NCBI GenBank assembly: GCA_050015375.1
Contig: JBEKBN010000007.1
Coordinates: forward strand, 1-49,297
From: Minisyncoccia bacterium
Lineage (GTDB): Bacteria > Patescibacteriota > Minisyncoccia > 2-02-FULL-40-12 > IGHO2-01-FULL-4-A
Length of the DNA: 49,297 nucleotides
Reading direction: 5' to 3'
A program made the position numbers and the translations under genes. Under the pieces are notes generated by a model that saw only the letters and a program-made list of their open reading frames with translations, was not told the origin of the DNA and did not search any database. Below, one piece after another: positions 6,698 through 42,888 of the stretch; position 1 is the stretch's first letter; each line of letters starts with the position of its first letter.

Positions 6698-6935
6698 TTT
6701 CTCTCGTTTCGCTTAGTGTGACTGATATTGTTTTCCGGGACACTCCGACTCTATGCGGCCGGCGGCCGCCTCATTGTCCCTCCACATGTTACGGGACAAT
6801 CAAAGAAGTCTCCGCTCATCGTCTCGCCTCGCTCGTTGTGGCATAATTTCCCACCCGCTTCGCTCTGCGGAAATTACGCTACAACCCCTTGCCCACTCGT
6901 CTTCGACGGTGCCCTCGAAACAACATCAGCCACAC
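6698..6935 (-). repeat. type-A structured repeat, variant (family sense on minus strand)
   Basis: Begins 1 nt after the rplI stop. Its reverse complement aligns block by block with 8830..9088 (GCAAGG + hairpin, GAGCGGAGACTTC, GATTGTC..GACAA, GC hairpin, GCATAGAGTCGGAG). Confidence 0.6.
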
Positions 6936-7639: not shown

Positions 7640-7848
7640 GGCTAATCCCAAGCGAGTCTCCTCAATCCCTGCGAACCCCGGTTGCTTCGGGCACGCTCAA
7701 AAGAGTGGATTGCACGGTTTGCGAGCAATATAATGGATAAAACACTGCGAGCAAAATCCACGCTTTTGAGCGAACAAGAAATCTCGCTGGGATTTCGAGT
7801 AGTGACCCAAAGGGACCGAGGGTGAGCCTGGTTGGGGATTGAGGGGGC
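7640..7848 (+). repeat. type-A structured repeat (GCACGG junction, TATAAT loop, TCGCTGGG-loop hairpin)
   Basis: Outer arms cctcaatccc (7660-7669)/gggattgagg (7835-7844). Helix cgctcaaaagagtggatt/aatccacgcttttgagcg. GCACGG at 7712-7717, TATAAT at 7729-7734, TCGCTGGG at 7784-7791. Ends 3 nt from the rpmA stop. Confidence 0.8.
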
Positions 7849-8829: not shown

Positions 8830-9088
8830 CGAGGAGTGATTGGTCTTTTCTCGAGCTCTGTCGCAGGCGCCGCGAGTGTTTATTTGCGCGCGTACGCGCG
8901 CAAATAAACACTTGCATCCGAGCAAGGTGTCGTGTTGTAATCCGAAGGAGTACAACACGACAAGGACGACAAGACAAAGAGCGGAGACTTCATATATCGA
9001 GCCGAGGATTGTCAGCAGACAAACGAGGCGAGATGAAGCGCCCGCTGGGCGCATAGAGTCGGAGCGTTGAGAGAAAAGATTAATCACG
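8830..9088 (+). repeat. type-A structured repeat, variant, containing a 36-nt perfect palindrome
   Basis: Outer arms tcttttctc/gagaaaaga. Palindrome gtgtttatttgcgcgcgtacgcgcgcaaataaacac at 8876-8911. GCAAGG at 8922-8927 followed by hairpin tgtcgtgttgta/tacaacacgaca. CGCTGGG loop at 9043-9049. Confidence 0.65.
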
Positions 9089-9921: not shown

Positions 9922-10425
9922 ATGGCATCAGACGAAAAACTCCCAGGGGACTACGTAGCGGGTTTTATCGATGGCGAGGGTTGTTTTTATCTTACTTATA
10001 GAAGTGAAAAAAAATACAGCCGAAAGGGCAGCCCAACCTATTATCGTTGGCTTCCATATTTTGCAATGACTTTAAGATTGGACGACATAGAAATTCTTCA
10101 TAAAATAAGAAATACACTTGGATGCGGAAATGTCTACAAATTAAGAAATAACAGTAAATGGGGGAGTCAAGCTTACTTTGGAATCCAAAATATAGACGAC
10201 CTTTATAACAAAATAATTCCGTTTTTTAAAAAATATCAACTCCGAGCAAAAAAAAGATTTGATTTCGAATTATGGTGTTCGGCTCTAAATATTTTACACG
10301 CGAACAAAATTCAAAAAAAATCGTGCTCTTTGAATGAAAACATGTTACTCAATAAAATAAGATTTAAAATGCGGATTTATAAAAGTGAGTTGAATAGGGG
10401 ATACAAGAACAACCCACAAGAATAA
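9922..10425 (+). CDS. free-standing single-motif LAGLIDADG homing endonuclease
   Basis: YVAGFIDGEGCFYL is the LAGLIDADG motif. At 167 aa it fits I-CreI-like homodimeric enzymes. No flanking intron or rRNA context. Confidence 0.85.
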   Translation: MASDEKLPGDYVAGFIDGEGCFYLTYRSEKKYSRKGSPTYYRWLPYFAMTLRLDDIEILHKIRNTLGCGNVYKLRNNSKWGSQAYFGIQNIDDLYNKIIPFFKKYQLRAKKRFDFELWCSALNILHANKIQKKSCSLNENMLLNKIRFKMRIYKSELNRGYKNNPQE

Positions 10426-12265: not shown

Positions 12266-13686
12266 TCCAATTTTTTTATCGCTGTTTTTATTCTTTTTAT
12301 GGCTTCTTCTTTTCCGATGACAAATAAAATTTCCAGTGGATCGGCTGAATATTTTTCTCCGCTCAATGCCACTCGCAACGGCCAATAGACCGCTCCCCTG
12401 TCGCCGTGAAATATTTCCTCGGCTATGTTGTCCAAAATGTTTTTTGTTGTTTCTTTGTCGGTTTCGAGATCTTCTAGCTCTTCAAGTATCTTTTCTAATG
12501 CTTTTTTCGCCCCACTTTTATCGGACTTCTTCCAAGTCAACAATTCCGTTTCGTATTCCGGCGCTTTGAAAAAGTAGTGATAATCCCCTACCTGATCCAG
12601 ATACTCAAGTCGCTCGCGAAAAATGGGAGCCATTTTCATAATTAATTCGTCATCAACGATCCCAAAATGTTTTTTAACGAATGGCAAAACAAGTTTGCAG
12701 ATGCCGGCATCATTTTCCATCTTTAAATATTGGGAATTGAGCCAGTTTAATTTTTTAATATCAAAAACCGCGCCGGATTTGTGGATTTTTTCCAGTTTGA
12801 ATTGTTCAATGATCTCGTTCTTGGTCAGCATTTCTTTTGTCGAATCATCCGGCGTCCAGCCAAGAAGCGCCAGAAAGTTCACCAAAGCGTCCGGTAAATA
12901 ACCAAGAGCGCGATATTCGGCCACCGAAGTCACGCCGTCGCGTTTAGACATTTTCGAACGGTCTGTTCCGAGAATCAGCGGCAAATGAGCAAATTTTGCC
13001 GGTGTCCAACTAAGCGTTTCATAAATTAAAATCTGTTTGGGCGTGTTAGCAATATGATCCTCGCCACGGATGACATGGCTGATTTCCATCATATGGTCGT
13101 CAATTACGACGGCAAAGTTATACAACGGCTCGTTGATATTTTTGGCAATGCTGAAATCCCCGAGCAATTTTTCCTCGAATTCTATTTTCCCCTTGATAAT
13201 ATCTTCAAAAACGATTTTTCTGCTTGAATTGGTATCAACCTTTAATCGAATTATCCCTTCCCCGTGATTCATGATTCGTGATTCATGATTCTTGTGCTCG
13301 CACATATGTCTTGGCGGTTCTTTTTTCTCCATCTGTTCTTTCTGCTCCGCTTCTAGTTCTTCTTTCGTGTGGTAACACCAAAACGCCTTGTCTTCGTCCA
13401 TGAGTTTCTGGATGTATTTCGTATAATATTTTGTCCGCTCGCTTTGGTGGTAGAGCTCGTCCCATTTCAAACCAAGCCATTCAAAGCCCTCGATGATGTC
13501 TTTCTCGTATTCTTTTGTCGAGCGTTCGGTGTCGGTGTCTTCAATTCTGAGAATGTATTGCCCACCCGACATGTGTCGCGCGAAAAGCCAGTTGAAAAGC
13601 GCCGTTCGCGCCGTGCCGATATGCAAAAAACCAGTAGGACTTGGCGCCATCCGAACTCGAATCTTCTCAATTTTGACTTTGGTCAT
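12262..13686 (-). CDS. gltX: glutamate--tRNA ligase
   Basis: RMAPSPTGFLHIGTARTALFNWLFA (HIGH) and KMSKRDG (KMSKS). Confidence 0.95.
   Translation of the reverse strand: MTKVKIEKIRVRMAPSPTGFLHIGTARTALFNWLFARHMSGGQYILRIEDTDTERSTKEYEKDIIEGFEWLGLKWDELYHQSERTKYYTKYIQKLMDEDKAFWCYHTKEELEAEQKEQMEKKEPPRHMCEHKNHESRIMNHGEGIIRLKVDTNSSRKIVFEDIIKGKIEFEEKLLGDFSIAKNINEPLYNFAVVIDDHMMEISHVIRGEDHIANTPKQILIYETLSWTPAKFAHLPLILGTDRSKMSKRDGVTSVAEYRALGYLPDALVNFLALLGWTPDDSTKEMLTKNEIIEQFKLEKIHKSGAVFDIKKLNWLNSQYLKMENDAGICKLVLPFVKKHFGIVDDELIMKMAPIFRERLEYLDQVGDYHYFFKAPEYETELLTWKKSDKSGAKKALEKILEELEDLETDKETTKNILDNIAEEIFHGDRGAVYWPLRVALSGEKYSADPLEILFVIGKEEAIKRIKTAIKKLE
13266..13293 (+). repeat. GATTCNT heptamer tract (4 units) inside gltX
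   Basis: gattcat gattcgt gattcat gattctt, read on the coding (minus) strand as KNHESRIMNH. Confidence 0.8.
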
Positions 13687-16276: not shown

Positions 16277-16729
16277 ATGGAAATAGTCAAAAACCCTGAT
16301 AAAATCTTACGCCTAATTATGAAACCGGTCAAGAATATAAGTTCTGAAACTTTGAAATTGGCCGAAGAGATGAAAACAATCATGAAGACCAGCAACGGCG
16401 TCGGCTTGGCGGCAAATCAGGTCGGTGTTGATCTGCGCGTTTTTGTCATTGACGAAAATCTGGCCAAAGAAAATAATGTGCCTGAAGTTTATTTCAACCC
16501 GGAGATAACCGAATATTCCAAAGATCTCGCCGAGATGGAGGAAGGTTGTTTGAGTTTACCCCAGTACTGGAAGGATATAAAACGCTCCAAAAAGATAAAA
16601 TTCAAAGCCACCGGCATTGACGGAAAAAAAATAAAAATCAAAGCACGCGGTTTTTTGGCGCGGGTTCTTCAGCACGAAGTTGATCACTTGAATGGATTGC
16701 TAATTAAAGATCGTCTTAATGAAAAGTAA
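16277..16729 (+). CDS. def: peptide deformylase
   Basis: GVGLAANQVG, EGCLS, HEVDHLNG. Confidence 0.95.
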   Translation: MEIVKNPDKILRLIMKPVKNISSETLKLAEEMKTIMKTSNGVGLAANQVGVDLRVFVIDENLAKENNVPEVYFNPEITEYSKDLAEMEEGCLSLPQYWKDIKRSKKIKFKATGIDGKKIKIKARGFLARVLQHEVDHLNGLLIKDRLNEK

Positions 16730-17600
16730 CGGTAAAATTATTTTTTTCGGCACATCTGAATTCGCCGTGCCGGCGCTGGAAGCGTTTTTTAACGCTGGCT
16801 ATGAAATTGGCGCCGTTATCACCACGCCCGATGAACCGGTCGGACGAAAACAAATTTTAACGCCTTCACCGGTTAAGTTTTGCGCCGAAAAACTAGGATT
16901 AAAAATTTTACAACCCCAAAAATTAGATTCCGAATTTTTAAAAATTCTTCAAACTACCAACCACAAACTACCAACTACTCTCGGTATCGTCGCCTCCTAC
17001 GGCAAAATAATTCCCAAAGAAATCATTGATTCGTTTCCGCTTGGCATCCTCAATATTCATCCGTCTCTTTTGCCGAAATATCGCGGGCCGTCGCCGATCC
17101 AGACCCAGATTTTGAACGGCGAGACGGAAATTGGAGTGACGATAATCAAAATTGACGAACTGGTGGATCACGGACCAATTGTCGCTGAACAAGAATCAAG
17201 AATCATGAATCATGAATTGTTTGAAGATGCGCAAAATAAATTATCCCGAATCGGAACCAACCTCCTGGTCAAAATATTGCCCGATTATATTTCCGGAAAA
17301 ATAAAACCGATTGAACAAAATCACGATCTGGCATCCTTCACAAAAAAGACATCCAAAGAAGATGGCAAAATCGACTGGAACAAACCGGCTGAACAAATTT
17401 ATGATCAATTTCGGGCTTTTCACAAATGGCCGGGAGTTTGGACGATTTGGAAAAACAAAATTTTGAAGATCACGGATCTGCGCGTTCAAAACGGCAAGAT
17501 TGAGATCCTCCGTCTTCAACTCGAAGGCGGAAAAGAGATGTCTTTGAAAGAATTTGTCGCCGGCCACAAAGATTTTATTGTCGGCAAACTCGGCCGGTGA
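16719..17600 (+). CDS. fmt: methionyl-tRNA formyltransferase
   Basis: IIFFGTSEFAVP..., NIHPSLLPKYRGPSPIQ. Overlaps def as in the usual def-fmt operon. Confidence 0.95.
   Translation: MKSNGKIIFFGTSEFAVPALEAFFNAGYEIGAVITTPDEPVGRKQILTPSPVKFCAEKLGLKILQPQKLDSEFLKILQTTNHKLPTTLGIVASYGKIIPKEIIDSFPLGILNIHPSLLPKYRGPSPIQTQILNGETEIGVTIIKIDELVDHGPIVAEQESRIMNHELFEDAQNKLSRIGTNLLVKILPDYISGKIKPIEQNHDLASFTKKTSKEDGKIDWNKPAEQIYDQFRAFHKWPGVWTIWKNKILKITDLRVQNGKIEILRLQLEGGKEMSLKEFVAGHKDFIVGKLGR
17191..17218 (-). repeat. heptamer tract (4 units, inverse orientation) inside fmt
   Basis: aagaatc aagaatc atgaatc atgaatt, read in frame as QESRIMNHEL. Confidence 0.8.
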
Positions 17601-17612
17601 TATAATATTCTT

Positions 17613-18356
17613 ATGCAGGAAGAAAATGTTCTCGAAGTTCAAAATCTGTCCGTTGAGTTCAACGGCGGTTTGATCTTGGATAATTTGAATTTTTCGGTGA
17701 GGCGCGGGGAAGTTCTTGCTATCGTCGGTCCCAACGGCGCCGGAAAAACCGTTTTGTTCCGTTCGCTTCTTGATCTTATCCCCTACTCCGGCGAAATAGA
17801 TTGGAAGCCCGGGATCCGAATCGGTTATGTCCCGCAAAAATTATCCATTGAGCATAATTTTCCCTTGACGGTCAGGGAATTTTTGGAAATCAAATCTGCC
17901 GCTGGAGTTCGCTATTCCCATCACGATATTTTTCAAGCGCTGGAGTCGGTCGGCATCAAAACCGGCACCGACGAGAAACATCATCTTGAACATCACATTC
18001 TGAACCGGCCTTTGGGCAAACTTTCCGGCGGCGAACTTCAGCGGATCCTTATCGCTTGGTCAATGATCGGCAAACCCGATGTTTTGCTTTTTGACGAACC
18101 CACGGCTGGCATTGATGCCGGGGGCGAGGAAACCATTTATCAACTTCTCCACAAACTCCAAATGAGCGCGACGCTTACGATCTTAATGATCTCGCACGAT
18201 CTGAATATCGTTTATAAATATACCGACAATGTTCTTTGCCTGAATAAAAAAATGCTGGCTTTTGGAAGACCGAAAACCATTTTAAGCCAAGAAGGATTGG
18301 CGTCGCTTTATGGCGGCGAGACCGAAATAATCCGCCACGACCACGGTTACAATTAA
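17613..18356 (+). CDS. metal (Zn/Mn-type) ABC transporter ATP-binding protein
   Basis: GPNGAGKT, LSGGELQR, LLFDEP. Resembles ZnuC/MntB-type ATPases. Confidence 0.85.
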   Translation: MQEENVLEVQNLSVEFNGGLILDNLNFSVRRGEVLAIVGPNGAGKTVLFRSLLDLIPYSGEIDWKPGIRIGYVPQKLSIEHNFPLTVREFLEIKSAAGVRYSHHDIFQALESVGIKTGTDEKHHLEHHILNRPLGKLSGGELQRILIAWSMIGKPDVLLFDEPTAGIDAGGEETIYQLLHKLQMSATLTILMISHDLNIVYKYTDNVLCLNKKMLAFGRPKTILSQEGLASLYGGETEIIRHDHGYN

Positions 18357-18392
18357 TTCGTATATTCGTAAAAATTCGTAATTTCGTAGTAA
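18355..18392 (+). repeat. 38-nt ATTCGTA-repeat block, copy 1
   Basis: aattcgtatattcgtaaaaattcgtaatttcgtagtaa fills the stop-to-start gap. 37/38 identical to 35834..35871. Confidence 0.85.
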
Positions 18393-21185: not shown

Positions 21186-21219
21186 CCCCACGAATGAAAA
21201 GCTATCCGTGGGGTTTTTT
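21186..21219 (+). terminator. rho-independent terminator (convergent gene pair)
   Basis: ccccacg...cgtgggg followed by T6. Confidence 0.7.
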
Positions 21220-21238
21220 AATTCGCTCGCGCCGAGTA

Positions 21239-22342
21239 TTAGATTTCCGTGGAGAGCTCCTCGACGAGTTTGCGGGCACGGCTGGAGAGTTTCTTGGGAA
21301 TATCAATTTTGATTTTGACGATTTGGTCGCCGTTGCGATTGCCGTGAACGCCAAATCCTCGCATGCGGATTTCCTCGCCGTCTTGAGTTCCCGCCGGAAT
21401 CTGGATTTCCTTGTCGCCATCGAGTGTCGGCACTCGGACGACATTTCCTAGCATTGCATCAGTTAATTTAATATTCAAATTGTAAAATAAATCTTCCCCG
21501 ACTCTTTTGAATCTTCTATCATTGAGAACCTGAAGCCGGATATACAAATCCCCCGCCTGTCCGTTTCTGAATCCGGCTTGGCCCTGGCCTTTCACGACCA
21601 AAACCTCGCGGTCTTTTATTCCGCCCGGAATTGTAATGTCAAAGGTTTTTCTACCTTTGGCTCTCCCTTCGCCCGAACAAATTGGGCATTTTTCCTTCGG
21701 CACCTTACCGGTTCCGGTGCAAACTTTGCAAGCGTAAACCTGCATTATGTTGCCAAAAAAAGAATGGACATTTTGTTTTATCTCGCCGGTTCCGTTGCAA
21801 GTTCCGCAATTCACGGCATTACTTCCCGGCTTCACCCCGCTTCCTTGGCAATTCTCGCAAATTATTTCTTTTGACAATTCAACTTTCTTCACCCCACCTC
21901 GCGCACAGGTGAAAAAATCTATCGTCAGAGCGACTTCAATATCGGCGCCGCGATTTATATTTGCCTCGGCCCTTCTTGAACTTCTCCGTCCAAAACCTCC
22001 GCCGAAAATATCAAAGATGTCATTCAAATCAATATTCTCGCCACGGCCAAAACCGCCAAATTGAGAAAAATCAAATCCGTCAAATCCGCCCTGTTGACCT
22101 TGTCCGCCGAAACCGCCAAACCCTTGTCCATTCTGAAATGTTGAACCGAACTGGTCATATTGACCACGTTTTTTCGGATCGGACAAAACTTGATAGGCCT
22201 CATTTATTTCTTTGAACTTGGCTTCATTACCACCTTTTTTGTCAGGATGATATTCGTGAGCCAGTTTTCTGTAGGCACTCTTAATCTCATCCGCGGAAGC
22301 GGATTTTTCAATGCCTAAGGTTTTGTAGTAATCGGAGGGCAT
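21239..22342 (-). CDS. dnaJ: molecular chaperone DnaJ
   Basis: [31 protein letters not shown] (J domain), a G/F region and four CxxCxGxG motifs. Start moved to ATG 22342. Confidence 0.95.
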
Positions 22343-22352
22343 AATAAAAAAT

Positions 22353-22556
22353 AGTAAGCTGGCGGTTGTTGTCTTGAGGGCGCTCATTTCTGTGAGCCCG
22401 AAGGCTTGGAGGGCGTGATTGCATGGCCTGGCAACATGAGAAAATGGTAAAATATTTCCTGCCATTTTCTCGTGTTGCCAGAATCCACAGAAATGAGCGA
22501 GCCGGAATTCTCGCTGGGAATTCCGGCGTCCCGAGAGATAATAGCTGCCAGCTAAA
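22353..22556 (+). repeat. type-A structured repeat filling the dnaK-dnaJ gap
   Basis: Outer arms agctggc/gccagct. Helix cgctcatttctgtg/cacagaaatgagcg. GCATGG at 22421-22426. Hairpin cctggcaacatgagaaaatgg/ccattttctcgtgttgccag. TCGCTGGG at 22511-22518, closed by ggaattc/gaattcc. Confidence 0.8.
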
Positions 22557-22561
22557 TTATC

Positions 22562-24448
22562 TTACTTTTCTTCAGCTTTAGTTTCCTTCGCCTCGGAGTG
22601 CGGATCCTCCTCAACTTTCGCTCCCTGCTCGGCGTTTGTTGATTGCTGGGCTTTATACATCGCTTCTCCGATTTTTTGGGCAGTTGTCGCCAAGTCGTCC
22701 GTGGCTTTTTTGATCTCTGCAGCATCGGAACTATCTTTCACTTTTTTGACCGCTTCTATTTTTTCCTCGATCTGCTTTTTCAGATCATCGGCAACTTTTG
22801 TTCCCGCGTCTTTCAGTGCTTTCTCGGTCGTGTAGACCAACGTCTCGGCCATATTCTTGGCATCAACGAGTTCTTTTTTCTTGGCATCTTCGGAAGCGAA
22901 TTTTTCGGCTTCCATGGTCATCCGCTTTTTCTCGTCTTCAGACAAACCGGATGAACCTTCGATCTTGATTGACTGCTCTTTTCCGGTGGCTTTGTCTTTG
23001 GCTTTGACATTCAGAATTCCATTGGCATCAATATCGAATGAGACCTCAATTTGCGGAATGCCCCGAGGCGCCGGTGGAATGCCGTCAAGAATGAATCTGC
23101 CGAGCGTTTTGTTGTCAGCCGACATCGGCCGTTCGCCTTGCAAAACATGGATTTCTACTGATGGCTGATTGTCGGCCGCCGTTGAAAATATTTGTGATTT
23201 GGAAACTGGCACGGTTGTGTTTTTGTCTATCATTTTTGTCATAACCTGGCCCATGGTTTCAATGCCAAGCGAAAGCGGTGTTACATCCAAAAGCAAAACA
23301 TCCCTAATGTCGCCTTGCATGATTCCGCCCTGGATGGCCGCGCCGACGGCGACAACTTCGTCAGGATTGACGTCTTTGTGCGGTTCTTTGCCGAATAATT
23401 TTTTGACGGCGTCGATCATCGCCGGCATTCTGGTCTGGCCGCCGACAAGAACGACTTCGTTAATATCTGAAATCTTAATTCCGGTTTTCTCAAGAGTTTC
23501 TTTTGTTAATTTAATCGAAAGGTCAATGTAATCGCGGACGAGATCCTCCAGTTTCGCTCGAGTGAAAGTCATGCTGAAATGCTTGGCGCCCGAAGCGTCG
23601 GCGGTCAGAAACGGAATATTGACCTCGGTTTGAGTGGTGCTGGAAAGTTCGTGTTTGGCTTTCTCAGCCGCGTCTTTCAGCCGTTGCAATGCTAGCTGGT
23701 CTTTTGACACATCCACGCCTTGTTCTTTTTTGAATTCATCCACAAAATATTTGATTATCCGCTGGTCAAAATCGTCACCGCCAAGATGGGTGTCGCCGCC
23801 GGTTCCTTTGACTTCAATTGTGTCCTCGGAAACTTCAAGGACTGAAATATCAAAAGTTCCGCCGCCAAAATCATAGACGCAAATTTTCTCATCTTTCTTT
23901 TTGTTGAAACCGTAAGCCAGCGCGGCGGCAGTCGGTTCGTTGATGACCCTTTTGACATTCAGACCGGCAATTTCACCAGCGTCTTTGGTTGCTTTTCTTT
24001 GAGAATCATCAAAATACGCCGGCACGGTAATGATGGCATCGGTTATCTTTTCGCCAAGTTTGTCTTCGGCATCGGTCTTCAATTTTTGCAATATCATCGC
24101 CGATATTTCCGCTGGCTTGAACCATTTCTCCCCCATTTTTATCTCAACATCGCCGTTTGAACCTTCGCGAATTTCATACGGCAAAAGCGCTTTGTCTTTT
24201 TGGACTTCCTTGTCGGAATATCTGCGGCCGATGAGCCGCTTCACTGAATATATCGTGTTTCTCGGATTTGTGACCGCTTGTCTTTTCGCTGTGACACCGA
24301 CGTAACGCTCACCGTTCTTGCCGACGGCAACAACGGACGGCGTCGTCCGCATGCCTTCCTTATTCTCCAAAACCCTCGGCTGGCCGATCTCCACGATCGC
24401 CATCGCCGAATTAGTCGTTCCCAGATCGATTCCTAATATTTTTGACAT
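22562..24448 (-). CDS. dnaK: molecular chaperone DnaK
   Basis: [25 protein letters not shown]. Confidence 0.97.
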
Positions 24449-24458
24449 GATGATTTAT

Positions 24459-24622
24459 AAGCGAGCGGATGTTATTTCTAGGGCGCTCATTTCTGTGCGA
24501 TTGCACGGTTGGCGAGCAGTATAATGTCGGCGTAAGCCACTGCGAGCCAAATCCACAGAAATGAGCGAGTCGATTTCCTCGCTGGGGAAATTGACATCCC
24601 ATGAAATAACATCAGCGAGCTT
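24459..24622 (+). repeat. type-A structured repeat filling the grpE-dnaK gap
   Basis: Arms aagcgagcggatgttatttc/gaaataacatcagcgagctt. GCACGG at 24503-24508, TATAAT at 24520-24525, TCGCTGGG at 24579-24586. Confidence 0.8.
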
Positions 24623-24627
24623 GTTAA

Positions 24628-25155
24628 TTATCTGATTATTTTCACTCTCGCCGGCCTGATGACTTTTCCGTGCATCGTGTAGCCGGCTCTGATCTCTTCA
24701 ATTTTGCTTGCCCCGTTTGAACTCGAAGAATTTCCAATGGGGTTCCGGTTTTCTTCGGTACTTATCGCTTCATGCAATTCCGGATCAAATTTTTCTCCTT
24801 CGACCTTTATTTTCTCAACTCCGTGTTTTTTCAATAATTCGCTGAACTTTTTCAAAACCTGATTCAGACCAATATTTTCCGACGAATGTTTTGCCGTGAT
24901 CTCCAGATCATCAACCACGTCCAGTATTTCGATCAGCAACGCCTCGTTGGCAAATTTCGCGAATTCTTCCAGCGTTTTGGTTTCGTCTTTTTTGTAATTC
25001 AGAAAATCCGCCCGTTCGCGTTTCCAATTATTCAAATACTCCTCGGCTTTCGCTTCTGCTTCTTCCAATTTCTTTTTCAATAAAACCGAATCAATTTGCT
25101 CCAAAATCTCGTCCTTCCCCAATTGGTTCTGATTTTGTTTTTGTTCTTGGGCCAT
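24628..25155 (-). CDS. grpE: nucleotide exchange factor GrpE
   Basis: Coiled-coil N-terminus, ..FDPELHEAIS.., and position between hrcA and dnaK. Confidence 0.93.
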   Translation of the reverse strand: MAQEQKQNQNQLGKDEILEQIDSVLLKKKLEEAEAKAEEYLNNWKRERADFLNYKKDETKTLEEFAKFANEALLIEILDVVDDLEITAKHSSENIGLNQVLKKFSELLKKHGVEKIKVEGEKFDPELHEAISTEENRNPIGNSSSSNGASKIEEIRAGYTMHGKVIRPARVKIIR

Positions 25156-25156
25156 A

Positions 25157-25909
25157 TTAATTTTTCACTGCCATTTTATTTAATTCGTCCGTCGTATATT
25201 TTATCAATCCTATATTTCTCTGATAATCCATCCTCGTCGGACCGATCAGGGTCAGCGAACCGGTGAATTTTTCCGGCAATCGATATTTGGCAAACATCAT
25301 CGTTTCGTCTTTAACGTCACGGATCTGGTTCTCGTCGCCGATGATGATATTCAAATTTTCGAACCGATCGTCCATCATCGTGAACAGATGTTTCTCCAGT
25401 TGATCAAAAATATTTTCAAACCGGTCAAAAAAACTCGTCAGCCGGAAAGCGCGGTCAAATTCCCTGAAATCCGGTAATTCGAACATCCCCGAAAGTCCGC
25501 ATTTGAAAAAATCATCGCGTTGGTCAATGTTGGTGATGACCAGATTTTCGCAAAGATCGGAAAGTGTTTTGGCTACGTTCTTGTTTAATTGTTGCGGATC
25601 GTTGCCGGCGTCTTTGATGGCGCGGGAGATCTTCTTCCGGTCAACCGGATTTGGTTTCAATTTTTCCGGTTCAATAAAGTTATCCACATAATAGCGATAA
25701 GCGATGTCGGTCGGGACGCGGCCGCCGGAAGTGTGGAACTGATTCAGATAACCGAGCGTCTCCAGCTCATTCATCTCGCCCCGGATTGATGCCGATCTCA
25801 AGCCGAAAAAGCCAGATTTTTCAATCTCTTTTGAGCTTACCGGGTCGGCGGTTCTGATATATTGGCTAACTATCGCCGCCACCAAAGCCGATTGTCTTGG
25901 CGTAAGCAT
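25157..25909 (-). CDS. hrcA: heat-inducible transcription repressor HrcA
   Basis: MLTPRQSALVAAIVSQYIRTADPVSSKEI..LGYL..HTSGGRVPTD. CIRCE lies immediately upstream. Confidence 0.9.
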   Translation of the reverse strand: MLTPRQSALVAAIVSQYIRTADPVSSKEIEKSGFFGLRSASIRGEMNELETLGYLNQFHTSGGRVPTDIAYRYYVDNFIEPEKLKPNPVDRKKISRAIKDAGNDPQQLNKNVAKTLSDLCENLVITNIDQRDDFFKCGLSGMFELPDFREFDRAFRLTSFFDRFENIFDQLEKHLFTMMDDRFENLNIIIGDENQIRDVKDETMMFAKYRLPEKFTGSLTLIGPTRMDYQRNIGLIKYTTDELNKMAVKN

Positions 25910-25917
25910 ATGTATCA

Positions 25918-25954
25918 ATTATAGCCATTGGCACTCTCATGTCAAGAGTGCCAA
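25918..25954 (-). promoter_or_regulatory. CIRCE operator overlapping the hrcA promoter
   Basis: TTGGCACTC-N9-GAGTGCCAA (25928-25954) compared with the consensus TTAGCACTC-N9-GAGTGCTAA. Minus strand reads TTGACA (25940-25945, in the CIRCE spacer), 16 nt, TATAAT (25918-25923), then 8 nt to the ATG. Confidence 0.85.
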
Positions 25955-26034
25955 TCGGCGGATGACGGATATTGTCTCTCTAAACAACATCCGCCATCCT
26001 CCTCATTTTTGATTTTTGATGATAAAATATATTT

Positions 26035-27327
26035 ATGGGCAGGATAAAATCTTTCTGGAGAAATTTAGGTCCGGGCCTTGTTGCCGGCGCCGCTGATGAT
26101 GATCCGTCCGGTATCGCGACCTATTCCATTGCCGGCGCTAAGTTCGGTCTGGGCGCTTTATGGACCGCTTTATATACTTTGCCGTTCATCATCATCATCC
26201 AGAGAATGGCCGGCCGGATCGGGCTCATTTCCGGCAAAGGAATGGCCGCTAATATGAAAAGATTTTATCCCAGGTGGATCCTCATCTTCGTCGCCATATT
26301 AATCCTCTTCGCGAACATTGTTAACATCGGCGCGGATATTTCCGGCATGTCGGCGGCTTCGGCGGTTTTGATGCCAAGCGTCTCGCCTATTTTTTTGGCG
26401 ATATTGATCCCGGGGGTCATCACTTTGATGCTTGTCGTTTCATCCTATCGGACGATGGTCAAATATTTGAAATGGATCGCCATGGTCATGCTGGCGTATG
26501 TCTTGGCGGTTTTTTTCATAAAAATGGATTGGCCGGCGGTTCTTTTTCGGGCGGTGGTTCCTGACATCAAATTTACGAAAGATTATTTGTTGATGATGAT
26601 CGCTGTTTTCGGCACGACGATCTCGCCCTATCTTTTTTTCTGGCAAGCGTCCGAGTCCGTCGAGGAAGAGCAATTCCGCACGCAAACAAACCCAGAGCTG
26701 GCGACAATGATTCCGGCCACCGAGCCACACATGACTCATCGCGACCAGAAAATAATCGGCGGGGAGATTGGTTCAATGTATAGAGATGTTCGTTACGGCA
26801 TGATATTCTCCAATGTCATCACTTTTTTCATAATTGCGTTATGCTCGGCGACGCTTTTCAAAAACGGCGCCGTCAATGTCAGCACGATGCAGGAAGTCGC
26901 CTCGGTTTTGAAACCTTTGGCTGGTTCGTATTCAAATTTCTTGTTTATGATAGGAATCCTGGCGGCTGGCGCGATCGCGATTCCGGTTTTGGCTGGTTCA
27001 GCGGCATATATTATCGCTGAAATGTTTAATTGGAAGTGGGGATTTTCCAAGCCGTTTCATCGAGCCAGACAATTTTATCTGGTTATTATCATAGCCACCG
27101 CGCTCGGCGTTGCCATTCCTCTTTTGAAACTCAGCCCGGTATCAATCCTTTTTTACACCGCGGTGATTTACGGGTTCATCTCGCCGTTTCTTGTCGCCAT
27201 GCTTATCCACATGGCCAATAATCCTCGGATCATGGGCCAATACACCAGCCGTCCTCTTTCCAATGTCATCGCATACATTCTCTTCATCATCATGGCCGGC
27301 AGTTCGATTCTGATGCTGGTGTTGTAA
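26035..27327 (+). CDS. mntH: NRAMP family divalent metal transporter
   Basis: GPGLVAGAADDDPSGIATYSIAGAKFG and 11-12 TM helices. Confidence 0.88.
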   Translation: MGRIKSFWRNLGPGLVAGAADDDPSGIATYSIAGAKFGLGALWTALYTLPFIIIIQRMAGRIGLISGKGMAANMKRFYPRWILIFVAILILFANIVNIGADISGMSAASAVLMPSVSPIFLAILIPGVITLMLVVSSYRTMVKYLKWIAMVMLAYVLAVFFIKMDWPAVLFRAVVPDIKFTKDYLLMMIAVFGTTISPYLFFWQASESVEEEQFRTQTNPELATMIPATEPHMTHRDQKIIGGEIGSMYRDVRYGMIFSNVITFFIIALCSATLFKNGAVNVSTMQEVASVLKPLAGSYSNFLFMIGILAAGAIAIPVLAGSAAYIIAEMFNWKWGFSKPFHRARQFYLVIIIATALGVAIPLLKLSPVSILFYTAVIYGFISPFLVAMLIHMANNPRIMGQYTSRPLSNVIAYILFIIMAGSSILMLVL

Positions 27328-27328
27328 T

Positions 27329-27439
27329 ACCCCGCCTCATCTGGGGTGATAATTTTACTTAGCAATCTGACTATCTGATGCCTCGCCTGCGGCTCTGGTT
27401 ATTCTAATTTCCATGTTTTATCTCCGGAAGAGGCGGGGT
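27329..27439. repeat. 111-nt segment bounded by 10-bp inverted repeats
   Basis: accccgcctc (27329-27338) / gaggcggggt (27430-27439). Starts 2 nt after the NRAMP stop. Confidence 0.5.
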
Positions 27440-27492
27440 TATTGCTTGTTACCGGCAAATTTTTCGCTCTGCTCAAATTGCCGACAAGCAAC

Positions 27493-27515
27493 AAAAAAAC
27501 CGAGCAGATGCCCGG
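27493..27515 (-). terminator. rho-independent terminator of 27539..27790
   Basis: Minus strand: ccgggc-atct-gctcgg followed by T7. Confidence 0.6.
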
Positions 27516-27538
27516 CAGCAAATCGATAACAGACCAAT

Positions 27539-27790
27539 CTAGCGTAATAACTTACCAGTTCTTTTCGACTGGCCAACACAATTTCCGTTGGAGTCATAGA
27601 TCAGACGTTTATGACTGGGTTTAGTAACTTCTTGAACCAATAATTCTGCCTCAGCAATTGTACCACAATCTTTTACTGTTTCAATATAATCTTCTTCAAC
27701 TATACTAAATTGCTGTTCATATTCATCAATTTCAATGACTCGGAACTTTCCTTCTGGAGCTCTAAAGAAATCATGATTCCCCATTGCCAT
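27539..27790 (-). CDS. hypothetical acidic protein (83 aa)
   Basis: Complete ORF with a terminator. No recognisable domain. Confidence 0.45.
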   Translation of the reverse strand: MAMGNHDFFRAPEGKFRVIEIDEYEQQFSIVEEDYIETVKDCGTIAEAELLVQEVTKPSHKRLIYDSNGNCVGQSKRTGKLLR

Positions 27791-27867
27791 TTCTCCTCAA
27801 CAAATATTTGTTAATTGTCAAACAACAAACATATGATAGTTTATAACCACAAATTTGTCAATGCCTG

Positions 27868-27897
27868 TTGGATAAAACGCTTTTTTGGTGATACAAT
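27868..27897 (+). promoter_or_regulatory. promoter candidate for cysS (extended -10, leaderless-type spacing)
   Basis: TTGGAT, 18 nt, TGaTACAAT (27889-27897), then 7 nt to the ATG. No SD. Confidence 0.45.
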
Positions 27898-27904
27898 TTA
27901 GACA

Positions 27905-29308
27905 ATGCAAATCTACAATACCCTGACTCGGAAAAAAGAAGAATTCGCTCCGCGGGAAAAAGGCAAAGTCAAAATGTTCGTCTGCGGGCCGACGGTTTAT
28001 GATTATGTTCATATTGGAAACGCGCGGACTTTTGTGTTTTTTGATTTTGTCGTGAAGTATTTGCGTTTCAAAGGTTTTGATGTTGATTATGTCCAAAACA
28101 TCACCGACATTGACGACAAGATAATCAGCAAAGCCATCAAGGCCGGAAAAGAACCCGCCGAAATCGCCAAAACATACGAAATGGCTTTTCATGAGAATAT
28201 GAAGGCGCTGGGAGTGACATCGGTTTCAAAATACGCCCGGGCGACGGATTTCATGCCGGAAATCATTTCGCAGGTAAAACGGCTCATCGAAAACGGAAAC
28301 GCGTACAAAATTGACGGCGACGGCTGGTATTTCGACCTGAAAACATTTCCCGAATACGGCAAATTATCCGGCCGAACTATGGAGATGGCTGATGATGCCG
28401 TTTCCCGGATAGACGAAAATGAGAACAAGCATAATCGTGGCGATTTTTGCCTATGGAAACTAAGCAAGGACGGGGAACCAACATGGGATGGTGGCAGGTT
28501 TGGCGCCGGTCGCCCAGGTTGGCACATTGAAGACACGGCAATAACCGAGAAGTTTTTCGGTCCGCAATACGACATCCATGGCGGCGGACAGGACTTGATG
28601 TTCCCCCACCATGAAGCCGAGATCGCCCAGCAATGCTCGGCTTCGGGAATTGAAGCCAAAGATTTCGTAAAATTCTGGATGCACACCGGAATGCTTGTCA
28701 ACAAAGAACAAAAAATGTCCAAATCCACCGGTAATTTCATGACCCTGAATGATGCCTTGAAAAAATATTCTCCGGAAGTTTTGAGATTTTATTTTTTCAG
28801 TTCGCATTATCGATCACAACTGGATTATAGTATTGACAATCTGAAATCTGCCGAGGCAGCCATTCAAGGACTTTATGAAATTGATTGGCGATTGCAACAT
28901 CTTGATTTACCGAAACGAGTTGAATCATCGGAAGCAGTTGAATCGGTTAGGACATTTGAACATGATTTTGTCGAATCTGTGGATGATGATTTTAATATTC
29001 CACGTGCTGTTGCTGCAATTTTTGAACTGGTCAAGAAAATTAATAAATGTATGGATTTGGCCGGTGTTTCAAAAGAGCAAGCATTACAAGTTAAACAATC
29101 TTTGTTTAGAACTGCTGGAAATTTATTAGGGATAGTACCTAATGTTGGTTTCTTGCTCCCCGGAACAACACAAACCTTAATTGATATTCGTCAAAAGGCC
29201 AGAGAAAATAAAGATTTTGCGACAGCTGATAAATTACGCAAGGAAATATCCAGTCTTGGTTACCAAATCGACGATACACCCTACGGCCCTTTAATCAAGA
29301 AAAAGTAG
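27905..29308 (+). CDS. cysS: cysteine--tRNA ligase
   Basis: CGPTVYDYVHIGNART (HIGH) and KMSKSTGN (KMSKS). Confidence 0.95.
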   Translation: MQIYNTLTRKKEEFAPREKGKVKMFVCGPTVYDYVHIGNARTFVFFDFVVKYLRFKGFDVDYVQNITDIDDKIISKAIKAGKEPAEIAKTYEMAFHENMKALGVTSVSKYARATDFMPEIISQVKRLIENGNAYKIDGDGWYFDLKTFPEYGKLSGRTMEMADDAVSRIDENENKHNRGDFCLWKLSKDGEPTWDGGRFGAGRPGWHIEDTAITEKFFGPQYDIHGGGQDLMFPHHEAEIAQQCSASGIEAKDFVKFWMHTGMLVNKEQKMSKSTGNFMTLNDALKKYSPEVLRFYFFSSHYRSQLDYSIDNLKSAEAAIQGLYEIDWRLQHLDLPKRVESSEAVESVRTFEHDFVESVDDDFNIPRAVAAIFELVKKINKCMDLAGVSKEQALQVKQSLFRTAGNLLGIVPNVGFLLPGTTQTLIDIRQKARENKDFATADKLRKEISSLGYQIDDTPYGPLIKKK

Positions 29309-30764: not shown

Positions 30765-31360
30765 TGACAAATAAATTCAGATTATTGGCAAAGCAACTAT
30801 CCAAACTCCCCGGCATCGGGCCGCGCCAAGCGATGCGGCTGGTTTTGGCGATGGTTGAGTGGCCGAAACCAGAAGTCCAAGCGTTGGCTGACGCTTTGGC
30901 TGAGATCACGAACGGGCCGGTCTTGTGCAAGCAATGTTTTAATTTTACCGATGATGAGCTTTGTCATATTTGCGCCAGCCACCGGCGCGATCAGACAAAA
31001 ATAGCCGTTGTCGAAAAAATTACCGATCTGGAATCAATGGAAAAAGCCAGCGTGTTTCAGGGTGTTTATCATGTTCTTGGCGGCGTTATAAATCCGGCGG
31101 AGGGAATTTTGCCGGAAAAATTGAAGATCAAGGAATTAAAAGAAAGAATTCACAAATTAATGAAATTAACGCCGGATATTGAGCTCATCATCGCCACCAA
31201 TCCCAATGCCGAGGGCGAAACCACGGCAAAATATCTTGAAGAAGAATTGAAATCGTCAGGCGTCAAAACCACTCGTCTCGCCCGCGGTCTTTCCGCCGGC
31301 AGTTCTCTTGAATATGCCGACGAGACGACGCTGGCAAATGCGCTGAAAAATAGGCGCTGA
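30764..31360 (+). CDS. recR: recombination protein RecR
   Basis: LPGIGPRQAMRL (HhH), C..C..C.IC zinc finger and a Toprim segment. The ATG overlaps the dnaB stop. Confidence 0.93.
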   Translation: MTNKFRLLAKQLSKLPGIGPRQAMRLVLAMVEWPKPEVQALADALAEITNGPVLCKQCFNFTDDELCHICASHRRDQTKIAVVEKITDLESMEKASVFQGVYHVLGGVINPAEGILPEKLKIKELKERIHKLMKLTPDIELIIATNPNAEGETTAKYLEEELKSSGVKTTRLARGLSAGSSLEYADETTLANALKNRR

Positions 31361-31395
31361 ATTGTTTTTGAAATCTCTCTACCAATTTCTCCCAT

Positions 31396-31543
31396 AGCTC
31401 GCCAATATGGCTTTTGCGGACTTAGGAAATCCCAGCGAGATTTCCGTCATCCGGTTGTCGGATGCCGTTGTCGTTTTTTGATTACAAAAACCGAACCGTG
31501 CCAACGGCACCGACAACGGCCGCCCGAGCCATATTGGTGAGCT
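31396..31543 (-). repeat. type-A structured repeat (family sense on minus strand)
   Basis: Arms agctcgccaatatgg/ccatattggtgagct. CCCAGCGA at 31431-31438 and CCGTGC at 31496-31501. The reverse complement closely matches 42121-42225. Confidence 0.75.
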
Positions 31544-31602
31544 GTTGTTCGGGAGGAATTATTGAAGATTTCAAAAAAACAATTTTTTTGGTTATCCAAT
31601 GT

Positions 31603-32833: not shown

Positions 32834-32910
32834 AAAGACCTCCTTTTCAAGATTCTGTTGTCAACTAATATAATCACATCCACATCCATCCGTCAACATT
32901 GTGGAAGGTG

Positions 32911-33135
32911 TATTTTTGACTTTCAATAATAATCCGGCGACTAGGCGAGGCGATTGTCTTTCTGGGCACGCTCAAAAGAGTGGATTGCATGGTTTGCGAG
33001 CAGTATAATGGACAAGACACTGCGAGCAAAATCCACGCTTTTGAGCGAACGAGAAATCTCGCTGGGATTTCGCGTGGTGACAAGAGAGATAATCGCCGAA
33101 GCTAGCCGGAGATTAAAAATGGAAAGTCAAAAATA
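32911..33135 (+). repeat. type-A structured repeat downstream of rplU
   Basis: Outer arms tatttttgactttc (32911-32924)/gaaagtcaaaaata (33122-33135) and ggcgattgtctt/gagataatcgcc. The core is about 94% identical to 7690-7810. GCATGG at 32987-32992, TATAAT at 33004-33009, TCGCTGGG at 33059-33066. Confidence 0.8.
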
Positions 33136-34289: not shown

Positions 34290-34528
34290 ATCGACTCGCC
34301 GTTCGTGGCGTCTGTTGTCTCGAGGGCGCTCATTTCTGTGAGCCCGAAACTCCGGAATCTTGAGGATGAGGGCGTGATTGCATGGTCTGGAAACATCGGA
34401 AAGTTGTATAATATTTTCCTACAACTTTCCGATGTTTCCAGAATCCACAGAAATGAGCGAGACGATTTCCTCGCTGGGAAAATCGACGTCCCGAGAGGCA
34501 AAAGACGCCACGGCCATGCGAGAAATGC
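34290..34528 (+). repeat. type-A structured repeat downstream of murF
   Basis: Arms cgtggcgtct (34304-34313)/agacgccacg (34503-34512). GCATGG at 34380-34385. Hairpin ctggaaacatcggaaagttgta/tacaactttccgatgtttccag with a TATAAT loop (34407-34412). TCGCTGGG at 34471-34478. Confidence 0.8.
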
Positions 34529-35833: not shown

Positions 35834-35871
35834 AATTCGTATATTCGTAAAAATTCGTAACTTCGTAGTAA
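35834..35871 (+). repeat. 38-nt ATTCGTA-repeat block, copy 2
   Basis: aattcgtatattcgtaaaaattcgtaacttcgtagtaa abuts the ftsI stop. An inverted atacgaat at 35812-35819 pairs with 35835-35842. Confidence 0.85.
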
Positions 35872-38070: not shown

Positions 38071-38961
38071 TTAATTCTTTATTACAACCCTCAATTTCGC
38101 GCTTCTTGAATTCGGATTTTGCTTTTTTTCTTCAAGACCGGCAACAACCGGTTTTTTCACGAGCAATGCTACTTCTCCTTTTTTCGCCGCTTCCCGGAAA
38201 ATATTTTTAACGATTCTATCCTCCAGCGAATGAAACGATATCACCGCCACTCTGCCGCCGATCCGAACCGTTTCGATCGCTTTTTTTATGCCGTTCTCGA
38301 CATTTTCCAGCTCGTGATTGACCACGATCCTCAATGCCTGGAAAGTTCTGGTCGCGAAATGAATGTGTCCGGTTCTATATCTGAACGGCACGCCTCTTTT
38401 TATCGCCTCTACCAGTTGAAATGTCGTCTTTATCGGCCGCTGTCTTCTCTCGGCTATGATCTCTCTGGCGATTCCCCGCGAATATCTTTCCTCGCCGTAT
38501 TTGTAGATCAAGTTCGCAATATCTTCTTCGTTATAATTATTTAAAATATCTGCCGCCGTCTCACCTTCTTCATTGTTAAATCTCATGTCGAGAGCTTCGT
38601 CTTTTGAAAATGTGAATCCCCTTTCGCTGTCGGTCAATTGCCATGTGGACATGCCCAGATCGAATAAAATTCCGTCTGTGCTCGTAAAACCGTGACTATT
38701 GGCAATTTTCTCAATATTCACATAGTTATCATTAACCGCGATCAATCTATCTCCAAATTCATGATTCGTGATTCTTGATTCAAGATTCTTGTAAATTTCC
38801 GGGTCCCACTCGATTCCGAGCAACCCGCCGCCCGGCTTTATTTTTTCTAATATCGCCAACGCGTGTCCGCCGCCGTTGATGGTCGCGTCAATAAACTTCT
38901 GTCCGGGCTTAGGATCAAGATATTCAATAACTTCGTTTAAAAGAACCGGCGTATGGATCAT
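38071..38961 (-). CDS. rsmH: 16S rRNA (cytosine1402-N4)-methyltransferase
   Basis: HTPVLLNEVIEYL..DATINGGGHA, SFHSLEDRIVK. Confidence 0.93.
   Translation of the reverse strand: MIHTPVLLNEVIEYLDPKPGQKFIDATINGGGHALAILEKIKPGGGLLGIEWDPEIYKNLESRITNHEFGDRLIAVNDNYVNIEKIANSHGFTSTDGILFDLGMSTWQLTDSERGFTFSKDEALDMRFNNEEGETAADILNNYNEEDIANLIYKYGEERYSRGIAREIIAERRQRPIKTTFQLVEAIKRGVPFRYRTGHIHFATRTFQALRIVVNHELENVENGIKKAIETVRIGGRVAVISFHSLEDRIVKNIFREAAKKGEVALLVKKPVVAGLEEKKQNPNSRSAKLRVVIKN
38756..38790 (+). repeat. GATTCNN heptamer tract (5 units) inside rsmH
   Basis: aattcat gattcgt gattctt gattcaa gattctt, read on the coding strand as NLESRITNHEF. Confidence 0.8.
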
Positions 38962-39517: not shown

Positions 39518-39680
39518 GTCTTAGTAACTGATAGCTAACAGCCAGTAGTCCCGATGGCTTTCGCCATCGCAGATCCGCGATTTCGTTTTTGCGAAATCGG
39601 GAGATTTAATGGCAAAGAACAATTTTTTTGAAAAATCGCTACTCGCTGTTAACTATCAATTACCCGGCAATTTTTATTAG

Positions 39681-42886: not shown

Positions 42887-42888
42887 AT

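Follow-up and report, generated by a model that had tools for sequence, protein, structure and literature searches.

What is the palindromic element that recurs between the housekeeping genes of a Minisyncoccia bacterium, and is it recognised as mobile DNA or as a structured RNA? The question is raised by positions 7,640 to 7,848 of contig JBEKBN010000007.1 (assembly GCA_050015375.1), which was analysed over its entire 49,297 nt and is referred to below as the window. A first-pass annotation, made from the letters alone, had described here and at nine further loci a modular nested hairpin built around an unpaired GCAYGG, and had divided its nature between a structured RNA family and a palindromic mobile element recognised through its hairpin. 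Few known genomes are smaller or more densely packed with genes than those of the Candidate Phyla Radiation (CPR)/Patescibacteria. Our analyses show that the element family is real and widespread, although it was not found described in the collections or literature searched, and that selection acts to preserve its asymmetric fold. Furthermore, they lead us to favour, tentatively, a mobile repeat over a structured RNA.

Copies, fold and distribution of the element

A covariance model of the element (R1; 144 positions, 44 pairs, one branch point) was built from 53 sequences, comprising copies in other genomes and five copies of the window (7678, 24469, 32953, 42106 and 31401), and was searched over the window with filters off. 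The search returned exactly eight strong matches in + sense (E 4e-10 to 3e-41), the + strand of the element being throughout the orientation used in the first-pass annotation, with spans 7678-7822+, 22398-22548+ (22365-22548 in another run), 24468-24616+, 31401-31535-, 32953-33096+, 34358-34508+, 42107-42242+ and 45338-45500+. Since five of the eight copies were in the training set, only those at 22353, 34290 and 45331 are fully independent detections. Other matches with E <0.01 were reverse-strand echoes of three of the copies and a 68-nt match at 1655-1722 (15.9 bits, E 0.0098) that is unlike the element. The motif TCGCTGGG occurs eight times in the window against 1.55 expected, a number reached in 0 of 100 shuffles, and repeat finding paired 7689-7806 with 32964-33081 at 94% identity and linked 22455-22550, 24523-24618 and 34415-34510 at 60-78% identity. 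Compared with shuffled sequence, every copy tested gave a folding z-score between -4.4 and -11, and in all four copies tested for it (4/4) the + strand was slightly more stable than the - strand. At a density of eight copies per 49 kb, the element occupies about 4% of this housekeeping region.

The predicted fold of the + strand is a three-way junction, in which a long irregular stem (P1-P2-P3) carries the GCAYGG bulge and a side hairpin (P4). Elements are approximately 150-280 bp long (median total about 196 nt), their outer arms (P1) extending 10-50 nt past the R1 core. P2 usually reads ...GTGGATT / AATCCAC..., the 6-nt GCAYGG is unpaired and found on the 5' side only, and P3 is variable in length, often setting GCGAGC opposite GCGAGC, with an apical loop of the TA[T/A/C]AAT type that begins ATAAT and finishes CAC. 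After P3 follow the 3' strand of P2, P4 and the 3' strand of P1. The P4 loop is invariably CTCGCTGGG, which closes by C-G and U-G on the + strand, leaving a GCU triloop. In a MAFFT alignment of 67 copies the near-invariant blocks were GTGGATTGCAYGGT, GTA[T/A/C]AAT, CAC, AATCCAC, GA and CTCGCTGGG. The arms fall into a few types, namely GAGYTTGGYGAA.../...TTCRCCAARCTC, AGCGAGGCCA.../...TGGCGAGC and CTGCGAACC.../...GGTGAGCCTGG, which themselves covary; those of the AGCGAGGCCA/TGGCGAGC type are often lengthened by TCAAAAATTAT/ATAATTTTTGA. No protein-coding potential was seen in the element. The copies of the window, with one orthologous site that is empty there, are as follows (loci fetched from other genomes carry L-numbers).

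7640-7848, + strand: copy 1, locus of the original finding, 121 bits with R1 (E 1e-35); P2 5' strand 7694-7711, GCACGG bulge 7712-7717, P3 7718-7754 with TATAAT at 7729-7734, P2 3' strand 7755-7772, P4 hairpin 7778-7796 with TCGCTGGG at 7784-7791; outer arms CTGCGAACC / GGTGAGCCTGG; 3' end facing the stop codon of minus-strand rpmA (L27)
16660-16712, no strand: empty orthologous site at the overlap of def and fmt; the relatives L026, L008 and L071 carry a copy there
22353-22556, + strand: copy 2, 61 bits; between dnaK and dnaJ, antisense to the operon; P2 5' strand with an additional small hairpin; P3 long, its loop TAAAAT
24459-24622, + strand: copy 3, 125 bits; fills the grpE-dnaK spacer, antisense to the operon; palindrome extending over about 24443-24638
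31396-31543, - strand: copy 4, 71 bits; the sole minus-strand copy in the window; P2 variant CCGTTG/CAACGG; 3' end facing the stop codon of plus-strand recR; arms that may reach about 31360-31584
32911-33135, + strand: copy 5, 139 bits; 3' end facing the rplU (L21) stop codon
34290-34528, + strand: copy 6, 40 bits; of the copy-2 subtype; between tRNA-Glu and a Mur ligase gene
42078-42270, + strand: copy 7, 72 bits; between tRNA-Val and a 157-aa open reading frame (ORF); a module mosaic with a core of the copy-4 type and arms of the copy-1 type
45331-45504, + strand: copy 8, 108 bits; long perfect P3; between a plus-strand 693-aa ORF and minus-strand rplL (L7/L12)

The ten copies of one element claimed in the first-pass annotation thus become eight plus two, since the loci at 6698-6935 and 8830-9088 are unmatched by R1 and form a family of their own. 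The architecture it proposed is borne out (its helix X/X' is P2, followed by the unpaired GCAYGG, the variable hairpin P3 and the TCGCTGGG-loop hairpin P4), and so are, in folds and alignment, the tandem G-A motifs formed by GCGAGC against GCGAGC. The loop said to be usually TATAAT carries that exact hexamer in five of the eight window copies, the rest having TAAAAT or TGTAAT, and the outer arms, taken to be locus-specific, are instead the few homologous and covarying types given above.

Outside the window, one genome per species was scanned with the pattern TTGCAYGG-N30-60-AATCCAC-N15-30-CTCGCTGGG. Among 68 loci obtained, 65 lie in about 20 metagenome-assembled genomes (MAGs) of Patescibacteria, mostly Ca. 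Yanofskybacteria, the labels also including Paceibacteria/Paceibacterota, 'Patescibacteria group' and a few other CPR names; the best-sampled MAGs hold 7-11 pattern matches each. The enrichment beyond the window on which the first-pass annotation had made its proposal depend was therefore found. The remaining three loci, in Acidobacteria or Actinobacteria, are ignored by R1 and were discarded as chance matches. Searching the fetched loci with R1 added copies missed by the pattern, for a total of 83-86 distinct copies. DnaKs named Yanofskybacteria or Paceibacterota share 78-87% identity with that of the window. One protein of the window was also met on an ENA metagenome contig of housekeeping genes, which carries numerous small unannotated ORFs of a kind frequent in Patescibacteria MAGs.

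Over the full window, Rfam 15 with its gathering thresholds yielded only two tRNAs; three copies scanned against Rfam by E-value gave only miRNA-like hairpin noise, so that no known Rfam family accounts for the element. A consensus-like copy had no BLAST match among plasmids (PLSDB) or phages (INPHARED), the pattern scan had 0 matches in viral contigs (IMG/VR), and full-text literature searches found no description of the element. Several known structures were considered and set aside: hammerhead, twister and other ribozyme classes had no Rfam match; a kink-turn (K-turn) interpretation of the G-A motifs was ruled out by the absence of a 3-nt bulge where one is required; and the TIGR-Tas arrays of CPR are described as tandem interspaced guide arrays, whereas the present elements are dispersed, single and about 200 nt long.

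Selection on the fold, strand bias and turnover

RNAalifold, applied to the 67-copy alignment, proposed 48 pairs, 36 of them with compensatory changes. When 83 copies were aligned to R1, standard pairs made up 97.8% of the pair cells, against 72% with shuffled partners and 35-47% with partners slid by 1-3 columns, and both sides had changed in 41 of the 44 pairs. Since this alignment was fitted to the structure, and its cells count sequences and not events, orthologous copies were compared directly. At a site shared by two species (L025:5943 and L065:6026), with flanks 79-84% identical, twelve paired positions carry six double changes that keep the pair and no one-sided change. Over four orthologous comparisons, all five one-sided changes (5/5) swap Watson-Crick and G-U pairs on the + strand. 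The stem covariation proposed in the first-pass annotation is thus strong, and it extends to copies that occupy the same site.

Similarly, the copy between dnaK and dnaJ is 98.5% identical between the window and L070, while third codon positions are 83% identical in dnaK and 76% in dnaJ. The two strains are 93.6% identical over 7.5 kb, and both copies of the dnaK operon are kept in both. Identity along the dnaK/dnaJ region is patchy, so the strain comparison is suggestive and not decisive. Across 21200-28800, identity to L070 is a mosaic at a scale of 100-300 nt, with segments of 71-100% alternating within dnaJ, dnaK and cysS, a pattern that suggests frequent homologous recombination in the population.

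Pair substitutions point to the + strand as the better-supported functional strand, with a signal that is moderate and does not separate RNA from single-stranded DNA (ssDNA). In the R1-fitted core, G-U pairs outnumber A-C pairs by 95 to 27 and G-A outnumber T-C by 41 to 2. The corresponding counts are 71 to 42 and 27 to 8 in strand-neutral columns, where pairs were predicted from the minus strand, and 20 to 23 and 38 to 4 in the outer arms under strand-symmetric scoring, the G-A excess in the arms being largely due to the inherited GCGAG motif. This agrees with the first-pass annotation, which called the evidence on strand mixed: G-U exceeds A-C by only 1.7-3.5 to 1 in the core, and not at all in the outer arms. 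The + strand is the more stable in 80/86 copies with RNA parameters (median difference 8.7 kcal/mol) and in 82/86 with DNA parameters, both strands folding strongly (medians -86 and -78 kcal/mol). The G-U:A-C ratio is 21:7 in copies co-oriented with their neighbours and 41:10 in anti-oriented ones, which makes the bias intrinsic to the element and not a product of host transcription or of a simple strand mutation bias; a mutational cause of the G-U excess was judged unlikely on this ground. A mutual-information search for pseudoknot contacts of the bulge and loops gave no signal, and was uninformative because those positions are invariant.

Copies are gained, lost and replaced. In the window, def and fmt overlap by 11 nt and the junction between them is empty; three relatives have a copy there, and in one of these (L026) the final def codons and the stop codon lie within the outer arm of the element. 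At another orthologous site L025 and L065 differ in subtype and orientation, with unrelated arms. The closest relative of 64 among the 83 copies is in another genome, and identity as high as 97.7% is seen between copies from different species whose loci are non-orthologous. Together, the presence and absence at def-fmt, the swap between L025 and L065 and the identity across genomes require spread to new sites and replacement. Modules are also reassorted within the window: copies 1 and 5 are 94% identical in their core with different arms, and copies 1 and 7 have arms in common and different cores. The def-fmt, rplL-downstream and grpE-dnaK sites are each occupied in several species.

Genomic position and competing explanations

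All copies are intergenic and abut stop codons, in either orientation. Relative to the element, the flanking genes are opposite on both sides in 38 cases, in the same sense on both sides in 19, convergent in ten and divergent in five, and in 51/77 scorable cases an opposite-strand gene has its stop codon facing the 3' end of the element. In the window this holds for 8/8 copies, the facing genes being rpmA, dnaK, grpE, recR, rplU, the Mur ligase gene, the 157-aa ORF and rplL. The hrcA-grpE-dnaK-dnaJ operon, with a perfect TTGACA-16-TATAAT promoter on the minus strand (25945-25918), encloses two of these copies, whose minus-sense version must therefore belong to the operon mRNA. In other genomes, the recurrent families among 127 flanking proteins were fmt, def, L11, L7/L12, L10 and NusG.

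Gene calls are affected by this position. The dnaJ calls (longest-ORF and database) at 21239-22465 (-) and at L070 7017-8243 start inside the dnaK/dnaJ element, the true dnaJ start lying probably near the ATG at 22338; elements thus inflate ORF calls in these MAGs.

The element also contains a promoter-like block, TGGATT-17 nt-TA[T/A/C]AAT followed by CA 6-9 nt further on, which resembles a sigma-70 promoter. A sigma-70 scanner did not call this block, and in copies with a long P3 its spacing is 26-27 nt; a portable promoter inside the element is therefore only a possibility. The real promoters of the lineage have the form TTGACT/TTGACA-16 to 18-TATAAT. Separately, a promoter TTGACTTTTGCATGATGATTTGCTATAAT is strongly conserved in three MAGs (L014 -185, L040 -6604 and L041 -7910; 0-based offsets on the reverse-complemented locus), its recurrence indicating that the lineage uses TTGACT-17-TATAAT promoters; it contains TTGCATG, similar to the context of the element's bulge.

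The two possibilities named at the outset, structured RNA and hairpin-recognised mobile element, both remain the leading candidates. Short of even confidence, we favour a lineage-specific, non-coding, non-autonomous and mobile palindromic repeat that is recognised through its hairpin and co-transcribed with its neighbours, and place it slightly ahead of the structured-RNA explanation, the two not being exclusive. On this proposal, the folded single strand, ssDNA or RNA, would be recognised by a trans-acting protein encoded elsewhere in the genome that copies or moves the element, mobility thus passing through a single-stranded intermediate; recognition by way of the invariant unpaired nucleotides would explain why stems covary and loops are fixed. 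New copies would insert into intergenic DNA directly behind stop codons, and resident copies would be transcribed within the neighbouring mRNAs as very stable intercistronic or 3'-end hairpins, probably affecting termination or mRNA decay.

Several observations weigh against such mobility. Transposases, HUH/RAYT proteins, reverse transcriptases (RTs), integrases and Cas proteins were neither recurrent among the 127 flanking proteins nor present among window ORFs with a Pfam match; for every ORF with such a match, the absence of transposase, RAYT, RT and cas genes stated in the first-pass annotation is upheld. Anchored stem extension revealed no fixed termini, target-site duplication or base bias in the flanks, and no conserved terminal inverted repeat was found, the arms beyond the core varying from about 0 to more than 50 nt; an attempt to place the ends by whole-region minimum free energy folding was abandoned, as it over-extended into spurious pairs. 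Moreover, resident copies seem to be under constraint where they lie, contrary to what would be expected of an element that is purely selfish, and the sites shared between species (def-fmt, rplL-downstream) could reflect long persistence rather than mobility.

The structured-RNA explanation, which we consider somewhat less probable than a mobile repeat, holds that the copies are genes for a structured non-coding RNA, or an RNA module carried on mobile DNA, with the + strand transcribed, often antisense to the neighbours, and with the junction and its GCAYGG bulge, the AUAAU loop and the UCGCUGGG loop binding a protein, catalysing or regulating, in the manner of ORF-less multicopy RNAs of the HEARO/omega-RNA type. 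Covariation in every helix, with invariance confined to bulge, loops and junction, is the signature of a functional RNA; the G-U excess on the + strand, in the core and in strand-neutral columns alike, the exchange of Watson-Crick for G-U pairs in the one-sided orthologue changes, the conserved tandem G-A pairs, a strand bias independent of flanking transcription, high sequence conservation across species and in-situ compensatory evolution with conservation above that of neighbouring synonymous sites all agree with it. An RNA gene is harder to reconcile with the lack of a fixed promoter or terminator, a simple sigma-70 scan calling none for the + strand at the copies covered; with flanks devoid of a T-run and ends left undefined by a closing stem of about 0 to 50 bp; with copies that overlap stop codons and fill whole operon spacers (grpE-dnaK); and with their very high density. 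G-U pairs, moreover, only equal A-C pairs in the outer arms and form only about 2.7% of pairs (95/~3,530 pair cells), which seems low for an RNA. A broader formulation spanning both candidates, which we regard as possible and rather unlikely, is a functional structured nucleic-acid class endemic to Yanofskybacteria/Paceibacteria and not previously known, acting as + strand RNA or as a self-propagating hairpin element. In its RNA form it would often be antisense to housekeeping operons such as hrcA-grpE-dnaK-dnaJ, with GCAYGG, AUAAU and UCGCUGGG binding a lineage-specific protein or being catalytic; in its hairpin form it would be moved by a type of enzyme not yet linked to such substrates. In both forms, the several percent that it takes up of a streamlined CPR genome would be owed to a present dependence of the host on it.

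The position of the copies also suggests a purely cis-acting host element: a bidirectional terminator, or a hairpin that stabilises mRNAs at their 3' end or between cistrons, disseminated by recombination and acting in either orientation. They stand at terminator-like sites between a stop codon and the next promoter (promoter-like sites at 32867-32926 lie beyond copy 5), both strands fold strongly, and the arms of the commonest subtype contain TCAAAAATTAT...ATAATTTTTGA, so that in either orientation a strong hairpin is preceded by an A-run and followed by a T-run. A terminator, however, needs no invariant 9-nt loop, 6-nt bulge, TATAAT loop or structure of 150-280 nt; window copies have no T-run in their flanks by anchored stem extension; termination inside the hrcA-grpE-dnaK-dnaJ operon would be harmful; and in most scorable cases the strand that folds better runs antisense to the gene abutted, with a bias that ignores the direction of transcription. 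We consider a purely cis-acting role improbable. Even less probable are folded-ssDNA sites for a site-specific reaction on one strand (attC-like sites, substrates of the IS200/IS605 or RAYT type, sso/ssi-like priming), notwithstanding a structure kept more than its sequence, a strand-specific fold with fixed extrahelical and loop bases as in attC and sso, the preference for the + strand under DNA parameters as well, and the TGGATT-17 nt-TATAAT block with its CA, which is promoter-like with the -10 in a loop. Sheared G-A pairs (tandem 5'-YGAR-3') are stable in DNA too. Against such sites stand flanks of housekeeping genes in both orientations instead of cassette arrays, with no integrase, Y1 transposase or TnpB nearby, and the absence of a GTTRRRY or GTAG core. 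Furthermore, the + strand of 7/8 window copies is antisense to genes probably co-directional with replication, which, judged from gene orientation and GC skew, would make it the leading-strand template and the less exposed strand. Finally, complementarity might be kept mechanically, by intrastrand template switching or arm-to-arm conversion, in quasi-palindromes without function. Template-switch correction of quasi-palindromes does produce double changes, and double changes without one-sided intermediates are what was observed, but correction should also erase the GCAYGG bulge, the tandem G-A pairs, P4 and the G-U pairs, all of which persist in about 20 genomes, and the loop sequences are invariant; this account is very improbable.

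Other repeats, significance and relation to known systems

The two loci separated from the main element constitute a second family, which is architecturally similar to it and distinct from it.

6698-6935, - strand: second-family copy A, nested long hairpin with a GCAAGG bulge, unmatched by R1
8830-9088, + strand: second-family copy B, also a nested long hairpin with a GCAAGG bulge, unmatched by R1; a hairpin with the loop CGCTGG lies at about 9038-9052

Both copies share GAGCGGAGACTTC and ATAGAGTCGGAG and are devoid of TCGCTGGG, and the oriented strand exceeds its complement in stability by 17-19 kcal/mol. An exact-pattern scan for this family (6698/8830) in JGI metagenomes had 0 matches. Beside the 8830-9088 hairpin lies a free-standing LAGLIDADG_1 homing-endonuclease ORF of 167 aa (9922-10425, +), with no intron or host gene evident around it.

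Further repeats were observed in the window. A third family is 65-83% identical at 39449-39523, 42818-42892 and 45970-46044. In each copy a perfect hairpin specific to the locus (e.g. CCAGCACATATTTCG...CGAAATATGTGCTGG) stands beside one that is conserved, GGTAAG..TGTTTCCGTGCTCG..CTGCGCTCGGACA, and on the gene-sense minus strand the copies are found just upstream of the starts of mraZ, a 157-aa ORF and rplL. A 38-nt repeat of TTCGTA-type units (AATTCGTATATTCGTAAAAATTCGTAAYTTCGTAGTAA), 97% identical between 18355-18392 and 35834-35871 and intergenic at both, is placed just upstream of a plus-strand ABC-3 transporter gene and just downstream of a minus-strand penicillin-binding protein gene, respectively. 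Runs of CATGATT/CGTGATT heptamer-like units (e.g. CCCATGATTCTAGATTCATGATTCATGATTC) occur at 1256-1286, 13261-13291, 17188-17218 and 38744-38788. An 83-nt direct repeat (612-694 and 1012-1094; 82% identical, 400 nt apart), upstream of glycosyltransferase genes, contains TATTGTCAAATA and promoter-like AT-rich sequence.

Our searches found no comparable repeat or RNA family described in CPR/Patescibacteria, and a non-coding structure of about 200 bp inside core operons provides one of the cleanest cases of compensatory evolution to be expected from sequence alone. If mobile, the element would be a tractable case of selfish DNA persisting in reduced symbiotic genomes and would point to a hairpin-recognising enzyme; if an RNA, it would add to uncultivated bacteria a new class of large structured RNAs that could bind proteins or catalyse reactions. 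Whichever holds, the covariance model serves as a lineage marker and accounts for 'empty' intergenic DNA and for spurious ORF calls such as over-long dnaJ starts.

Among known systems, integron attC sites and the ssoA-type single-strand origins of rolling-circle plasmids resemble the element in conserving structure over sequence, in folding on one strand and in the fixed unpaired bases that give orientation, and sso elements further in having a loop with a conserved hexamer and a folded strand with features like those of a promoter. Unlike them, the element is chromosomal, dispersed and much longer than attC, with no integrase, cassette array or plasmid context; its consensus has no RYYYAAC/GTTRRRY cores, and its neighbours are housekeeping genes on both strands. 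HEARO/IscB omega-RNA, TnpB omega-RNA and IS110 bridge RNA are likewise large, covarying, multicopy intergenic structures, often without an ORF, but they have a defined end and a guide segment, are not palindromes over their whole length, and in at least some copies adjoin a nuclease or recombinase gene. No match was obtained to HEARO or other Rfam models, and no tnpA, tnpB or iscB occurs in the window or among the recurrent neighbours. The element has the structural properties required of a novel RNA motif, and no sign of an independent transcription unit.

Correia/NEMIS of Neisseria and other miniature inverted-repeat transposable elements (MITEs; RPE, Nezha, RUP) share its size (100-250 bp), non-coding nature, density, long RNA hairpins, possible promoter-like hexamers, subtypes, mosaics and insertion polymorphism, and the element is indeed small, non-coding and multicopy with insertion polymorphism. 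MITEs differ in that their terminal inverted repeats are fixed, that a target-site duplication borders them (TA in the case of Correia) and that an insertion sequence (IS) is related to them. The element has no uniform termini, its outermost arms varying in sequence and length; no duplication was detected, its approximate ends showing no recurrent flank motif and no near-identical empty site being encountered; and it has no known parent IS. About 550 kb of loci contained neither a transposase nor orphan half-elements flanking an ORF, all CTCGCTGGG sites lying in complete copies or at the three chance loci. In habit the element, for all its more elaborate fold, is like Correia elements and like the proteobacterial ERIC/IRU and REP/BIME (REPIN) repeats, the latter being multicopy extragenic imperfect palindromes located behind stop codons or between cistrons, in both orientations, co-transcribed as stable hairpins and variably present between related genomes. 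REP units are, however, about 35 nt long, with a GTAG head, symmetric doublets and a RAYT partner, and ERIC is a simple hairpin of 127 bp. The alignments, with their 144-position core and three-way junction, contain no GTAG-headed 35-nt unit and no symmetric doublet, P4 being confined to the 3' arm and GCAYGG to the 5' arm, and RAYT (Y1/HUH) proteins were absent from the window and from the recurrent families of the 127 flanking proteins. In contrast to REP and ERIC, the element is 150-280 bp long and asymmetric, with a bulge and a side hairpin on one arm only, invariant loops and layered G-A pairs, and belongs to Patescibacteria. We place it as a new family within the bacterial intergenic palindromic repeats, with a substantial chance that it constitutes a new class of structured RNA.

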